Origin: a virus
Virus genome (UHGV): UHGV-0227332
Length of the DNA: 17,123 nt
Reading direction: 5' to 3' (one strand)
In this document: positions 560 through 17,123 of the stretch, one piece after another
How positions within the stretch are numbered: the stretch's first letter is position 1
Layout of the letters: every line of letters starts with the position of its first letter
Notes under the pieces: model-generated
Told to the model about the DNA's origin: nothing
Seen by the model: the letters and a program-made list of their open reading frames with translations, nothing else
Database searches by the model: none
Made by a program: the position numbers and the translations under genes

Positions 560-1183
560 CTAACGTGTGACCGCATTCAAAATGTTGTCTGCGATTGACT
601 CTTCTTTGTGGCATTGCACCACCAGAGCGTCATACAGCGGCTTAACAGTGCGTGACCAGGTGGGTTGAGTAAGGTTTGGGATTAGCATCGTTACAGCGCG
701 ATATGCGGCGCTTGCTGGCATTCTTGAATAGCCGACTCCTTTGCATCTTCCGCACTCTTTCTCGACAACTCTCCCCCACTGCTCCGTTTTGGCTATATCA
801 ACCGCACGGCCTGTACCGTGGCAATCTCTGCATCTTGCCCCCGGCGTCGCGGCACTACGGCAATAATCCGCATAAGCGAATGTTGCGAGAACTTGCAGTA
901 CCTTTGCCTTAGTATTTCCTTCAAGCTTTGCCACACCACGGTATTTCCCCGATACCTTGTGTGCAAATTGCATCAGATAGTTGATAGCCTTTTGTTTGTC
1001 GTTCTGGCTGAGTTCGTGCTTACCACAGAATGCAGCCATTCCGAATCCGGCCTGTGATTGCGCCATCCCCATAGCAGCCATCACATCAGTACCGGAAAGA
1101 GAGTCAGAAGCCGTGGCCCGTGGTGAGTCGCTCATCATCGGGCTTTTTGGCGAATGAAATTTAGCTACGCTTTCGAGTCTCAT
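560..1183 (-). CDS. Q: Late antiterminator Q (lambda Q type), 207 aa
   Basis: Translation MRLESVAKFHSPKSP...CRDCHGTGRAVD...CGRCKGVGY is essentially lambda Q from memory, including the zinc-binding Cys cluster. It sits directly upstream of PR'/qut. Confidence 0.95.
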   Translation of the reverse strand: MRLESVAKFHSPKSPMMSDSPRATASDSLSGTDVMAAMGMAQSQAGFGMAAFCGKHELSQNDKQKAINYLMQFAHKVSGKYRGVAKLEGNTKAKVLQVLATFAYADYCRSAATPGARCRDCHGTGRAVDIAKTEQWGRVVEKECGRCKGVGYSRMPASAAYRAVTMLIPNLTQPTWSRTVKPLYDALVVQCHKEESIADNILNAVTR

Positions 1184-7691: not shown

Positions 7692-7985
7692 TCAGAATTC
7701 CATCTGGATTTGTTCAGAACGCTCGGTTGCCGCCGGGCGTTTTTTATTGGTGAGAATCGAAGCAACTTGTCGTGCCAATCGAGCCATGTCGTCGTCAACG
7801 ACACCCCATTCAAGAACAGCAAGCAGCATTGAGAACTTTGGAATCCAATCCCTCTTCCACCTGCTGATCTGCGACTTATCAACTCCCACAGCTTCCGCTG
7901 TCTTCTCAGTTCCAAGCATTGCGATTTTGTTAAGCAACGCACTCTCGATTCTTAGAGCCTCGTTGCGTTTGTTTGCACGAACCAT
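7692..7985 (-). CDS. cII: CII transcriptional activator (lambda type), 97 aa
   Basis: [75 protein letters not shown] matches lambda CII from memory. Internal Met chosen over the ORF-track start at 8072. Confidence 0.95.
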
Positions 7986-8043
7986 ATGTAAGTATTTCCT
8001 TAACAAATAAGAAGTTATGCGCATCAACTTATGCGCGTTGTAT

Positions 8044-8087
8044 TCCCGCATTTCGGCGGGAATGAGGACCATGACTGTTAAAGAGCA
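8044..8087 (-). promoter_or_regulatory. nutR-like site: boxA plus boxB hairpin
   Basis: On the minus strand: boxA-like GCTCTTTAACA (8077-8087), then hairpin TCCCGC-CGAAAT-GCGGGA (8044-8061). The same hairpin recurs at the nutL position. Located between cro and cII as in lambda. Confidence 0.55.
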
Positions 8088-8359: not shown

Positions 8360-9010
8360 ATGAAAACTCAATTGATGGGAGAGCGCATTCGCGCTCGGAG
8401 AAAAGAACTCAAGATCAGGCAGGCCGCACTTGGAAAGATGGTCGGCGTGTCTAATGTTGCCATATCTCAGTGGGAACGCTCTGAGACAGAGCCAAATGGA
8501 GAGAATCTTCTCGCCCTGGCTAATGCGTTGAAGTGTTCCCCTGACTATCTGATGAAAGGAGAGGAAAGTCTTTCAAACATTGCCTATCACAGTAGGCATG
8601 ATCCAAGAGGGTCATACCCTCTGATTAGCTGGGTGAGCGCAGGATGCTGGATGGAAGCTGTAGAACCATATCATAAGCGTGCAATAGATAACTGGTACGA
8701 TACAACCGTAGACTGTTCAGAAGATTCGTTTTGGTTGGACGTGAAGGGAGACTCAATGACGGCTCCGGCCGGTCTCAGTATCCCTGAAGGAATGATAATA
8801 CTCGTCGATCCTGAAGTAGAGCCGCGTAACGGGAAACTGGTAGTTGCAAAGCTCGAAGGAGAAAACGAGGCAACTTTCAAGAAGTTAGTTATTGATGCAG
8901 GCAGGAAGTTTCTAAAACCACTTAACCCACAATATCCGATGATCGAGATCAACGGAAACTGCAAAATCATCGGCGTAGTTGTCGATGCAAAACTAGCAAA
9001 CCTTCCATAA
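8360..9010 (+). CDS. c2: Prophage repressor, P22 C2-like (lambda CI analogue), 216 aa
   Basis: HTH N-terminal domain (QAALGKMVGVSNVAISQWERSE) and S24 peptidase-like C-terminal domain. Highly similar to P22 C2 from memory, same length. Confidence 0.95.
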   Translation: MKTQLMGERIRARRKELKIRQAALGKMVGVSNVAISQWERSETEPNGENLLALANALKCSPDYLMKGEESLSNIAYHSRHDPRGSYPLISWVSAGCWMEAVEPYHKRAIDNWYDTTVDCSEDSFWLDVKGDSMTAPAGLSIPEGMIILVDPEVEPRNGKLVVAKLEGENEATFKKLVIDAGRKFLKPLNPQYPMIEINGNCKIIGVVVDAKLANLP

Positions 9011-9324: not shown

Positions 9325-9630
9325 ATGGCAGTAGTCATTACATATCTGGCTGACGATAACGCCAGAAATCGCCGCAGAGCACGCAGACAGGCTCAACGTG
9401 AACAGGCAATGCAAGAACAGCGACTGGCACGAAAAATTGCGCTAAAGCTCTCTGGTTGCGTCAGGGCAGATAAAGCAGCATCACTCGGAAGCCTTCGCTG
9501 CAAGAAGGCAGAAGAAGTCGAGCGTAAACAGAACCGTATTTACTACCGCAAGCCACGCAGTGAAATGGGTGTGACTTGTTCAGGCCGCCAGAAGCAACGC
9601 GGAAAATCAATTCCAGCTTATTACGATTGA
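9325..9630 (+). CDS. N: N-like transcription antiterminator, 101 aa
   Basis: First gene after PL/nutL. N-terminal arginine-rich motif NARNRRRARRQAQREQ. C-terminus GVTCSGRQKQRGKSIPAYY resembles the lambda N C-terminus. GGAGG RBS. Confidence 0.75.
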   Translation: MAVVITYLADDNARNRRRARRQAQREQAMQEQRLARKIALKLSGCVRADKAASLGSLRCKKAEEVERKQNRIYYRKPRSEMGVTCSGRQKQRGKSIPAYYD

Positions 9631-11542: not shown

Positions 11543-11854
11543 ATGATGATTCTGACTCTGAATGATAAGCGTGAAATATCGCAAATAATCGCAAGTTTTA
11601 CTGATGAAGATTACGAGCGAATCAACAGTGAAGTTGATCGTCTCTGCAAACGTTGCGACCCAATAAGCGAAATGCTTCGCTCATATAAACCAGATGAACA
11701 CACTAAGGACGCTATCGACTGGCTGGAAGATGATGACTGTAACTATCAGGAAAAAGCCGCTGAATGGTTCTGGGATGCAATAACCGAAAGAGTTAAGGCT
11801 GAATATGCCTTCGCAATATTCAAACGCAGACACATTTATGGAGAAGCAGCATGA
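11543..11854 (+). CDS. Hypothetical acidic protein, 103 aa, upstream of recT
   Basis: ATGATG start 5 nt after AGGAG. Acidic, Trp-rich C-terminal half (DWLEDDDCNYQEKAAEWFWDAITER). Its stop overlaps the recT start (ATGA). Confidence 0.6.
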   Translation: MMILTLNDKREISQIIASFTDEDYERINSEVDRLCKRCDPISEMLRSYKPDEHTKDAIDWLEDDDCNYQEKAAEWFWDAITERVKAEYAFAIFKRRHIYGEAA

Positions 11855-12753
11855 GCAATATCGTTGAATTCGTTAAACAGCAGGAGCAGTTATTCTGCGG
11901 AGCATTGACTGAACAGACGGTGACATGGGCTAAGGAAAGCCAGTTTGCAATTCAGTATTTCCAGAAAAATGATTACCTGGCTAAAACGGCACTGGCAAAT
12001 CCAACCAGTGCACAGAACGCCATCATCAATGTTGCGGCGATCGGCATCACCTTAAACCCGGCCAGCAAACTGGCTTATCTGGTTCCGCGCGACGGCATGG
12101 TTTGCCTTGATATCAGCTATATGGGATTACTTCATCTTGCGCAATCGACAGGCTCAATTAAGTGGGGGCAATGCAAACTGGTGTACTCAAACGACACCTA
12201 TGAATCAAATGGCCTTGATTCAGCACCAACTCACAAATACAACGCATTTGGAGAGCGAGGCTCTATTGTTGGTGGTTATTGCACGGTAAAAACAGCAGAT
12301 GGTGACTACCTGACTGAAGAAATGAGTCTGGCAGAAATTAAAGCAGTGGAAGCAACGAGCAAGGCAAAGAATGGACCGTGGAAAACATTCTGGGAAGAGA
12401 TGGCGCGTAAAACAATAGTTAAACGCGCCAGCAAATACTGGCCTAAAGCCCAGCGACTGGATAATGCCATTCACCTGCTTAACGAAGATGAAGGTATGCA
12501 TCAGGAACCAGTTATGCCGCACAAATCAGAGGAAGATATCCGCGAAGATGAACGGAAACGCCAGCAGGAAATAATGGATAAAGCACAACTTCTTTGCGAT
12601 GAAATGGCTCAGGCAGAAAACATGGATGATTTGAAGCGATATTTTGCAGAAGCATATCGCCTGACATCTGGAATGAAATTGCAGCAGAACGTACAAGCCA
12701 TTTACATAGAATGCAAAGCGAAACTGGAGGTTGCCAGTGAGCAAACTGTATGA
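11851..12753 (+). CDS. recT: RecT-family single-strand annealing recombinase, 300 aa
   Basis: GPWKTFWEEMARKTIVKRASKYWP closely parallels E. coli RecT (GPWVTHWEEMAKKTAIRRLFKYLP). Length and position fit a recombination module. Confidence 0.9.
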   Translation: MSNIVEFVKQQEQLFCGALTEQTVTWAKESQFAIQYFQKNDYLAKTALANPTSAQNAIINVAAIGITLNPASKLAYLVPRDGMVCLDISYMGLLHLAQSTGSIKWGQCKLVYSNDTYESNGLDSAPTHKYNAFGERGSIVGGYCTVKTADGDYLTEEMSLAEIKAVEATSKAKNGPWKTFWEEMARKTIVKRASKYWPKAQRLDNAIHLLNEDEGMHQEPVMPHKSEEDIREDERKRQQEIMDKAQLLCDEMAQAENMDDLKRYFAEAYRLTSGMKLQQNVQAIYIECKAKLEVASEQTV

Positions 12754-16264: not shown

Positions 16265-16609
16265 ATGTCAGATTTGGCTATGAAGGTTTTGAAATGGCAA
16301 TCGACAGGCGATGTCGGCATCAGTAGCGCAACTCTTGCCTCAATCGCATGTGGACTGAAAAAGAATATCTATGGTCATCACTTCGGCGCTCCACATGACG
16401 CAGCCGATTTCCGGCGATGCGTTGCACTTGTTGAGCAGATTCCAGAAATCAGAGATTCATTCGGCAAGGTTGCAAAGCGCGTTCCGGCATTCAAAGGAAT
16501 CCTCAACGAATGGGATTCACTCGTTGCTCTGTTGAAGTCTGAAATGAAGATACACGGAAACAAAGCACCAGAGACTTACAGAAGAATTAGCGAGTTACGC
16601 AAGGACTAA
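16265..16609 (+). CDS. Hypothetical protein, 114 aa, bracketed by terminators (moron-like)
   Basis: ATG 8 nt after GGAG; terminators both upstream and downstream. The ORF-track start at 16238 lies inside the upstream terminator stem. Confidence 0.6.
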   Translation: MSDLAMKVLKWQSTGDVGISSATLASIACGLKKNIYGHHFGAPHDAADFRRCVALVEQIPEIRDSFGKVAKRVPAFKGILNEWDSLVALLKSEMKIHGNKAPETYRRISELRKD

Positions 16610-16668
16610 CCACAGCCTCACACTCGATGAGGCCTGTTCATTTCTCAAGATATCCAGACCTGCCATTG

Positions 16669-16689
16669 CCGCATCAATGCGGTTTTTTT
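16669..16689 (+). terminator. Intrinsic terminator (preceded by a second hairpin at 16615-16633)
   Basis: CCGCA-TCAA-TGCGG hairpin followed by a T7 run. An additional 6-bp stem GCCTCA/TGAGGC lies at 16615-16633, right after the preceding stop codon. Confidence 0.6.
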
Positions 16690-16734
16690 ATTGCCTGATT
16701 TGCAGGTTCGATTCCCTATTCGGAGATAGCACTC

Positions 16735-16935
16735 ATGCAACACGAACTACAACCTGATTCACTGGTTGATTTGAAATTCATCATGGCTGATACTGGCTTC
16801 GGTAAAACCTTCATCTACGACCGGATTAAGTCCGGCGACCTGCCAAAAGCCAAAGTTATCCACGGGCGAGCAAGATGGTTATATCGTGACCATTGTGAAT
16901 TCAAAAATAAGCTCTTAAGCCGCGCCAATGGGTAA
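16735..16935 (+). CDS. torI: TorI-like excisionase / recombination directionality factor (AlpA-Xis family), 66 aa
   Basis: MQHELQPDSLVDLKFIMADTGFGKTFIYDRIKSGDLPKAKVIHGRARWLYRDHCEFKNKLLSRANG matches E. coli KplE1 TorI from memory, a winged-helix excisionase. Located at the prophage end next to a tRNA-like core. Confidence 0.85.
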   Translation: MQHELQPDSLVDLKFIMADTGFGKTFIYDRIKSGDLPKAKVIHGRARWLYRDHCEFKNKLLSRANG

Positions 16936-17008
16936 AATAGCGGGTAAAATATTTCTTACATCTAAAAAACATCATTCCAATCAATCCCCTGCCGCGCCAA
17001 GTAGATGT

Positions 17009-17023
17009 CTGCAGGGGACACCA
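17009..17023 (+). other. Candidate attachment-site core: 15-nt identity to a tRNA-Arg 3' end (CTGCAGGGGACACCA)
   Basis: The sequence ends in ...GGGGACACCA, matching the acceptor-stem 3' half and CCA of E. coli argW as I recall it. It lies 74 bp downstream of the torI stop, where KplE1-type att cores are found. Confidence 0.45.
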
Positions 17024-17123
17024 TTCTTGTGTTTATCCCTAAAACCACGTAAAAACCGTAAATTATTAAATTCGCACTAGCAATGCCGAATAAGGCACAC
17101 CAGGAACTCGTGGTCTTATTCAT

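Follow-up and report, generated by a model that had tools for sequence, protein, structure and literature searches.

A second, conserved copy of the argW T-arm in the torI leader of an argW-integrated lambdoid prophage and its possible use as an operator

The DNA analysed is the virus genome UHGV-0227332 (17,123 nt, referred to as the window), which ends at the attR of a lambdoid prophage integrated in the tRNA gene argW. Close to this end lies torI, the gene of the excisionase or recombination directionality factor (RDF), and torI is flanked by two argW-derived segments. The downstream segment is the attachment core, which is already known. The upstream one, preceded by an intrinsic terminator and followed by the ribosome-binding site of torI, is a separate second copy of the argW T-arm; the box that it contains does not figure in the published binding sites of the module and was not found described in the reachable literature. 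Many Enterobacterales appear to have retained the inner 10 nt (GTTCGATTYC) of this copy in their torI modules by selection, whereas the remainder of the T-arm has decayed. We tentatively propose, with confidence somewhat short of even, that the box is a T-arm-derived operator in the torI leader, putatively bound by TorI and/or the integrase IntS; both the binder and the regulatory effect are what we infer from the data given below.

Features of the torI module and of the junction (window coordinates):
16668–16690, + strand: intrinsic terminator (terminator scan), hairpin GCCGCATCAATGCGGT followed by a T run, closing the early-left genes that lie upstream of it
16691–16703, + strand: TTGCCTGATTTGC, annotated cII-binding site of HK620 (HK620 features mapped onto the window)
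16700–16715, + strand: upstream tRNA-like segment, comprising the end of the variable loop, the 5' strand of the T-stem, the T-loop and the first two nucleotides of the 3' strand of the T-stem
16706–16715, + strand: conserved box GTTCGATTCC (GTTCGATTYC across genera), starting with GTTCG
16718–16722, + strand: ATTCG, a near TorI-type pentamer, overlapping the torI Shine-Dalgarno (SD) sequence GGAG (16722–16725)
16735–16935, + strand: torI (hkaC homologue), 66-aa excisionase/RDF
16930–16948, + strand: two direct GGGTAAA repeats (at 16930 and 16942, 12 nt apart), candidate IntS arm-type sites of the P arm
17002–17009, + strand: putative left core-type half-site C (AGATGTC), imperfect inverted repeat of ACACC
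17009–17024, + strand: att core CTGCAGGGGACACCAT, argW nt 61–75 plus 1 nt
17025–17123: host chromosome right of attR, intergenic DNA toward the 3' end of dsdC, aligning with K-12 downstream of pawZ

Origin of the two segments: the sequence at 16700–16715, TTGCAGGTTCGATTCC, was identical with nt 46–61 of K-12 argW, and that at 17009–17023, CTGCAGGGGACACCA, with nt 61–75, the identity extending to T17024 (K-12 argW used for comparison: ...gggctaaTTGCAGGTTCGATTCCTGCAGGGGACACCA; longer stretch, GTCCTCTTAGTTAAATGGATATAACGAGCCCCTCCTAAGGGCTAATTGCAGGTTCGATTCCTGCAGGGGACACCA); the two segments share one C (argW nt 61) and are 293 nt apart. No other exact argW match of at least 10 nt was found in an exhaustive comparison of both strands of the window; the chance expectation for one given 16-mer is ~8e-6 (2 × 17,123 positions; arithmetic estimate). 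The upstream 16-mer is identical in K-12 KplE1, HK620 and Sf6. The claims of the initial annotation that two tRNA-like segments bracket torI and that both stem from the 3' region of one tRNA were thus confirmed, with gaps of 19 nt (end of the upstream segment to the torI ATG) and 73 nt (torI stop to core) in place of 20 and 74. ARAGORN returned 0 tRNA genes in the window and Rfam no tRNA match even at E ≤ 10, its other matches being noise; the segments are therefore fragments and not a gene, and neither a contiguous cloverleaf nor an acceptor/T-arm minihelix was present.

Conservation of the upstream box: torI loci were collected by a TorI-alignment scan of GTDB species genomes (23 loci) and by exact-protein look-ups and two IMG/VR scans (>100 further loci), and all of them carry an argW-type core; single loci are cited below by their L numbers. 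GTTCGATT and the C at +9 were unchanged in 17/17 distinct leader variants, which come from Escherichia, Enterobacter, Citrobacter, Serratia, Pantoea (two lineages), Edwardsiella, Hafnia and IMG/VR lineages, and the box began 28–29 nt before the torI ATG in 16 of the 17. In the same sequences only 14% of the torI third-codon positions were invariant, and the longest invariant coding run was 7 nt. The flanks of the box vary on the 5' side (GCAGG, ACAGG, CCAGG, ATAGG, GCCGG, CTCA) and on the 3' side (CCTAT, CCTGT, CCAAA, CTGAT, CCAGT). Among 85 E. coli-type copies, a minor allele seen at least 3 times was found at 0/16 positions of the 16-mer, at 3/16 positions just upstream, at 2/19 downstream (the first of them 16716) and at 12/66 third-codon positions. 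Taken together, the lineages point to a putative ancestral TT(G)CAGGTTCGATTCCTG, i.e., almost the whole argW T-arm.

These figures bear on the view that the upstream piece is a neutral relic, a decaying leftover of an older att site or of aberrant argW recombination. The segment is not needed for excision in vitro (see below), it is missing in some relatives, including Dryocola (L093), whose TorI is nearly identical to that of box-bearing lineages, occasional prophage copies have point mutations in it, and the 3' strand of the T-stem has decayed. A relic would not account for a block of 9–10 nt that is unchanged across genera in which 86% of the torI third-codon positions vary, for the fixed spacing, or for the polymorphism of directly adjoining positions, and we regard this explanation as decidedly improbable. 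The suggestion of the initial annotation that the upstream segment may be a mere remnant is accordingly unlikely, the box being conserved across genera.

Several further observations concern the box and its likeness to argW. In L132 and L089 the box is partly duplicated in tandem, 30–60 nt upstream of the torI homologue (CCTGTTCGATTCCCGCGTTCGATTACC and GCTCGATTCATAGGTTCGATTTC). The torI box of the Edwardsiella/Hafnia lineage, ACAGGTTCGATTCCCTGT, equals an ACAGG-type T-arm with one extra C. An argW with the T-stem ACAGG/CCTGT and not GCAGG/CCTGC was found in Proteus hauseri (L103, 11495–11567, − strand) and in the hosts of L151–L155; no CCAGG-type argW was found. The Edwardsiella/Hafnia-lineage box has ACAGG..CCTGT, yet the tRNA expected from the att cores of these prophages is of the GCAGG type, and the evidence for a box that tracks the T-stem of the host argW leans negative. 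The torI modules of L090 and L106, metagenome-assembled genomes labelled as Actinomycetes and Parachlamydiaceae, respectively, were nearly identical to the Citrobacter/Enterobacter type; mis-binning or contamination is likely.

Relation of the two segments to each other: the initial annotation had suggested that the excisionase cassette sits within one tRNA-homologous attachment region, that is, that torI was inserted into a once-continuous att region of ~31 nt of which the segments are the two halves. In the E. coli lineage the segments do abut exactly in tRNA coordinates (argW 46–61 and 61–75), as two halves would. The upstream copy, however, runs on through CCTG, into the core coordinates, in Serratia (L091) and Pantoea (L094), and the attP of most relatives has its own in-register T-loop remnant, (G/A/T)TTCGATGT(A/T/C), right before TGCAGGG. 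In this remnant GTTCGATGTA adjoins the overlap TGCAGGG (relatives), and Serratia attP reads GAGTTCGATGTA before TGCAGG compared with CAGGTTCGATTCC before TGCAGG in argW. The segments are therefore overlapping partial T-arm copies and not halves, and it is in the E. coli lineage alone that they abut exactly. A joined or tRNA-continuous form, looked for with a chimera of argW nt 1–61 (including the 16-mer) and the torI leader as query (coverage of at least 80% of its length), was present in 0/5,426 E. coli genomes; neither terminal repeats nor a target duplication flanking 16716–17008 were seen on reading the sequence. The insertion of a torI cassette into one tRNA end is thus largely refuted, and we give it very little credence. 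An interrupted tRNA, or the remnant of a deletion, was also considered as a candidate and was rejected on the absence of a joined copy from the same 5,426 genomes. On the whole, the interpretation given by the initial annotation is partly supported.

The upstream segment is not an arm-type site, as had been proposed: the arm repeats are at 16930 and 16942, and neither GGGTAAA nor TAAA occurs in 16690–16734. Excision in vitro uses a linear attR of 135 bp, extending from CTCTTAAGCCGCGCCAATGG (16912–16931) to 17046 (PMC3509656); the upstream segment lies ~200 nt to the left of it and is therefore dispensable for this reaction. Nor does the box form a core-type crossover site of the integrase (Int), since the bases after it are CTATTCG GAGATAG, where such a site would have TGCAGGG GACACC; at best the box is a lone half-site. 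The copy could have arisen from an older att site, from a core-proximal duplication or from an illegitimate event at the boundary of the overlap. As with the tRNA-fragment direct repeats at prophage ends such as pawZ, the downstream segment is the 3' end of argW duplicated by integration. Unlike these, the upstream segment was not produced by integration, being located inside the phage DNA and in the attP of free HK620 and Sf6, and the stretch of the tRNA repeated in it is outside the crossover core.

Candidate binders, TorI: TorI represses PintS by way of five sites in attL (I1–I5), whose defining pentamers are GTTCG, GATCG and GTCCG (PMC2951348). The box has GTTCG at 16706–16710, and in the slot 12 nt from it, occupied by ATTCG in the window, several relatives have GTTCG or GTCCG. 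The box thus resembles I1–I5 in the shared pentamer, in its place near the transcription or translation start of a recombination gene and in the logic of an RDF acting as regulator; I1–I5 are arrays at 10 or 20 nt with C/T after the pentamer, whereas the box offers one strong and one degenerate site, 12 nt apart, with A following. In K-12 attL (L003, 361–479) the GTTCG of the argW T-loop and the five TorI pentamers lie at 361, 392, 412, 455, 465 and 475, respectively; the spacings of 31, 20, 43, 10 and 10 nt are all near whole helical turns, and the argW T-loop is therefore on the same face of the DNA as the mapped TorI sites. Proteus attL has GTTCG repeats (CAGTTCGCC twice and TAGTTCGCA) like the TorI sites of KplE1.

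Candidate binders, IntS: the ten conserved bases equal the left (B) half-site of attB, the one that adjoins the overlap, which makes IntS an equally natural candidate.

A number of observations weigh against the operator. The second pentamer is degenerate and is 12 nt away, not 10 or 20; the base after the box pentamer is A in 17/17 variants versus C or T in all of the ~22 TorI-type sites of the P' arm (K-12, HK620, L129, L128 and Proteus), so that neither the sequence context nor the 10- or 20-bp phasing of TorI sites is present. The five published TorI sites do not include the argW T-loop of attL, which has the identical sequence (PMC2951348). IntS accepts a very different C half-site (GTAGATGTC in E. 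coli), and IntS binding alone would therefore not require all 10 nt. The box is absent from relatives with an intact torI (Dryocola, Klebsiella, Cronobacter, Tatumella, Arsenophonus and some Pantoea) and likewise from the Proteus and Erwinia loci, the leader of box-less loci being unrelated or missing. The estimate of invariance is partly ascertained, the variants having been picked by the motif, and the lineages are related and not independent.

DNA site or RNA fold: in the leader variants the T-stem pairs in 51% of cells with a 7-nt loop and in 65% with an 8-nt loop, which is not above shuffled or slid controls; only the two loop-closing pairs hold, and a 5-bp T-stem with compensatory changes, or any other support from covariation, was not found. 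As the T-stem pairing is not kept, and as the rest of the T-arm decayed whereas the inner 10 nt were kept, the box is favoured to act as a sequence-specific site rather than through a tRNA-like fold. The main rival of the operator is an RNA element: in read-through transcripts the box would supply the 5' half of a leader structure hiding the torI SD (UUCG/YGGA or AUUYCC/GGAGAU) or, in an alternative form, a T-loop mimic bound as RNA by the RDF, either form controlling the translation of TorI. A fold of this kind (GUU/AAC, AUU/GAU and CC/GG, the last with the SD) was returned by RNAalifold and is kept in 13–16 of 16 leaders; the box pairs with the SD region in single-sequence folds of many lineages, the distance between the two is fixed, and 16/17 leaders have, just before GGAG, a C or T capable of pairing with G4 of the box. 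The action of P4 Vis proposed on int mRNA is a precedent for an RDF acting on RNA (PMC2951348). The consensus fold amounts, however, to only −1.8 kcal/mol and has no compensatory pair, the E. coli leader folds with a non-significant z = −1.3 (24/200 shuffles fold as well), the canonical T-stem is not maintained, and no variation occurs in the 5' half, not even at places where a wobble or another pair would do; in E. coli the AACC partner is lost and GGTT is kept. An RNA element is on balance unlikely.

Promoter context: in the GenBank entry of HK620 a 'phage integration' promoter is annotated that corresponds to 16690–16728 of the window, and the annotation is copied in Sf6. The segment might thus merely be part of a cII-dependent integration promoter, pI, and its likeness to a tRNA incidental; CII would bind at TTGC-N5-TTGC (16691–16703), and a transcript begun at the torI SD or right behind it would supply Int without TorI during lysogenisation. 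Besides the two GenBank annotations, the lambda-type CII encoded by the phage of the window speaks for such a promoter, as do canonical TTGCN6TTGC sites in the same direction at 7963–7976 (pRE-like) and 883–896 (in Q) and the lambda-pI box of HK022, TTGCGTGTAATTGC, at the equivalent place before xis. The order terminator (16668–16690), site (16691–16703) and torI ATG (16735) is also that of HK022. The spacing of N5 differs, however, from the N6 of the phage's own pRE-like and paQ-like sites, so that TTGC-N6-TTGC itself is missing; K-12 and many other copies read TTAC in place of the first TTGC, the other box-bearing genera have neither repeat, and the conserved GTTCGATTYC would fall in the promoter spacer, which is normally the least constrained part. 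No sigma-70-like promoter was detected on the torI strand in a scan of 16500–17123. A cII-dependent pI may exist in the E. coli lineage without explaining what is conserved, and as a full account of the segment it is rather improbable; it is compatible with an operator, the two not being exclusive.

The two canonical CII boxes are TTGCGTTTGTTTGC at 7963–7976 (+ strand), inside the 5' end of the cII-like gene and pRE-like, which we take to be identical to the pRE box of lambda, and TTGCGAGAACTTGC at 883–896 (+ strand), antisense within the Q-like gene and paQ-like; the phage of the window appears to use lambda-type CII control. The pI of lambda and HK022 is found at the same place, after the last early-left terminator and before the RDF start codon, and a start predicted at or beyond the RDF ribosome-binding site would give Int without RDF. 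Here, unlike in lambda, the conserved element is a copy of a tRNA T-loop and the TTGC repeats are N5 and poorly conserved; in the prophage int is at the other end, and a pI-type promoter reaches it only in the circular genome.

Proposed operation: TorI would bind the box through the GTTCG pentamer, and/or IntS through the copy of the attB left half-site; once occupied, the box would restrain transcription running into torI and, in the circular phage, into int, and in this way set the Int:RDF ratio. The place of the box inside the promoter annotated in HK620, in the same slot as the cII box of the lambda/HK022 pI, supports the operator. KplE1-type prophages express their integrase constitutively, in low amounts, the expression of the RDF is named as the main control point of excision, and PtorI is described as uncharacterised (PMC2951348). 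Neither data on the transcription start of torI nor a mention of the upstream T-arm box was found in the reachable literature, and the box carries no annotation in K-12. Autoregulation by P4 Vis and P2 Cox offers a parallel, in that a small winged-helix RDF likewise regulates recombination or early promoters; the relation to TorI is at the level of mechanism only, and self-regulation by TorI is here a proposal.

T-loop-like sequences before integrase genes: GTTCGA(T/A), often GGTTCGAT, was observed 23–45 nt upstream of six different P4-type int genes (L005, 2929; L136, 2929; L110, 1928; L121, 2929; L153, 2605, − strand; L155, 1086); these genes belong to tandem islands, where they follow the argW core on its right-hand side, and in two of the loci, L005 and L136, the motif lies inside an inverted repeat GGGGCA..TGCCCC. 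At K-12 leuX-intB (L157, ~637) CCGGTTCGATAAT lies inside TTGGTACA..TGTACCAA; CCGGTTCGA is found there 45 nt before intB, a 9-nt match that is at the level of chance at this locus. No T-arm copy was found near K-12 ssrA-intA/alpA. The motif before P4-type int genes may be a family-wide operator or a T-loop-like leader element, and its recurrence speaks for the operator proposed in the torI leader. As a wider speculation, which we consider improbable, the T-loop of the target tRNA might have been exapted as regulatory DNA across P4-type Int/RDF modules, with GGTTCGAT copies before the RDF and int genes. These copies would be bound by the same Int/RDF that recognise the T-loop side of the tRNA in attB and attL; IntS at the arm-type repeats (16930–16948) would bridge to the B-type half-site (16706–16715) and loop out torI, and the loop would silence the excisionase in the lysogen until read-through transcription or accumulation of TorI breaks it.

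Attachment core and arm-type sites: CTGCAGGGGACACCAT is the published 16-nt duplicated core of KplE1 (PMC2951348). It is labelled 'attP core' in HK620 and Sf6 and forms the argW-fragment pseudogene pawZ in K-12; the assignment of the downstream segment as the functional core, made in the initial annotation, thus holds. In 20 relatives compared the core is an imperfect inverted repeat around TGCAGGG (GATGT-C-TGCAGGG-G-ACACC in E. coli) and, in Edwardsiella, a perfect covarying one (GGCGT-A-TGCAGGG-A-ACGCC); TGCAGGG at 17010–17016 is therefore the probable 7-bp overlap, and the same comparison makes 17002–17009 the probable half-site C, a region that reads TTCGATGT(A/C/T), a T-loop remnant, in relatives. 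The GGGTAAA repeats are kept in all relatives compared; a conserved TAAA motif is present in all arm-type sites (PMC2951348), and the repeats are probably the IntS arm-type sites. In L005, L136, L110, L131 and L132 torI, P arm and core are directly followed by a different integrase module, with neither the cognate intS P' arm nor host DNA to the right of the TGCAGGG core (~2775 / 1775); these loci are tandem integrative elements with a common argW core.

Identity of the right end: the attR side has the layout of the KplE1 (CPS-53)/HK620/Sf6 module, with the 16-nt core at the phage/host junction, a torI-type RDF gene reading toward the core and TAAA arm-type repeats in between; core, TorI, GGGTAAA repeats and the dsdC-side junction are the same. 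The window differs from KplE1, HK620 and Sf6 in its lambda-like early region (CI/CII/N/RecT) and in the terminator before the module. In BLAST, phage genomes (HK620, Sf6, Kapi1, HK633, IME10 and others) match 16679–17025 only, and from 17025 on the window aligns with the K-12 DNA after pawZ and not with the P' arm of HK620/Sf6; phage homology being replaced at this point by dsdC-side host DNA, the window ends at attR. Its last 724 nt have a full-length match in 288 E. coli chromosomes, which bear torI and dsdC annotations. On its left side the conserved torI module begins approximately at the terminator (phage BLAST matches begin at ~16679); E. coli-type copies have three different terminator hairpins, yet are identical in sequence from the T run onward. 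The TorI protein is 100% identical in many IMG/VR prophages and is named TorI at NCBI, the torI label being also used in E. coli genomes.

The remainder of the window is the early region of the lambdoid prophage (Q, O-like, CII, CI, N, RecT ... torI); it begins inside the prophage, whose left end is outside the window:
560–1183, − strand: Q-like gene
between the Q-like and CII-like genes in the listed order: primase/helicase and O-like genes
7692–8072, − strand: CII-like (lambda-type) gene
8360–9010: CI repressor
9325–9630: N-like gene
11851–12753: RecT, followed by small early-left genes and then torI

Other observations near torI: an open reading frame (ORF) of 50 codons at 16928–17080 (+ strand) spans the torI stop, the arm-type repeats and the att core and is annotated as hkaB in HK620 and as gene 17 in Sf6; as it runs across the core, integration alters its 3' part, and a genuine gene is unlikely. 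A sub-threshold Rfam match to the prophage sRNA IsrK (14 bits, E = 1.9) at 16615–16689 (+ strand), over two hairpins, is probably noise. A tor-box-like CTGTTCATTT occurs at 16634–16643 (+ strand), ~100 nt upstream of torI and between two hairpins; it agrees at 9/10 positions with the 'tor box' consensus of TorR, presumably CTGTTCATAT, and is the one such match in the window, with about one expected by chance.

The box, 12 nt ahead of the torI ribosome-binding site, is the best-conserved stretch of the torI locus and resembles the binding sequences of both recombination proteins. The regulation of torI is an acknowledged question, and the box provides a concrete, mutable candidate for the missing control point of the RDF, present in the tractable phages HK620, Sf6 and Kapi1 as well as in K-12. 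More generally, tRNA fragments at prophage ends are not always scars of integration or split genes, and the present case hints that the T-loop sequence of a tRNA may be reused as operator DNA in tRNA-targeting elements.

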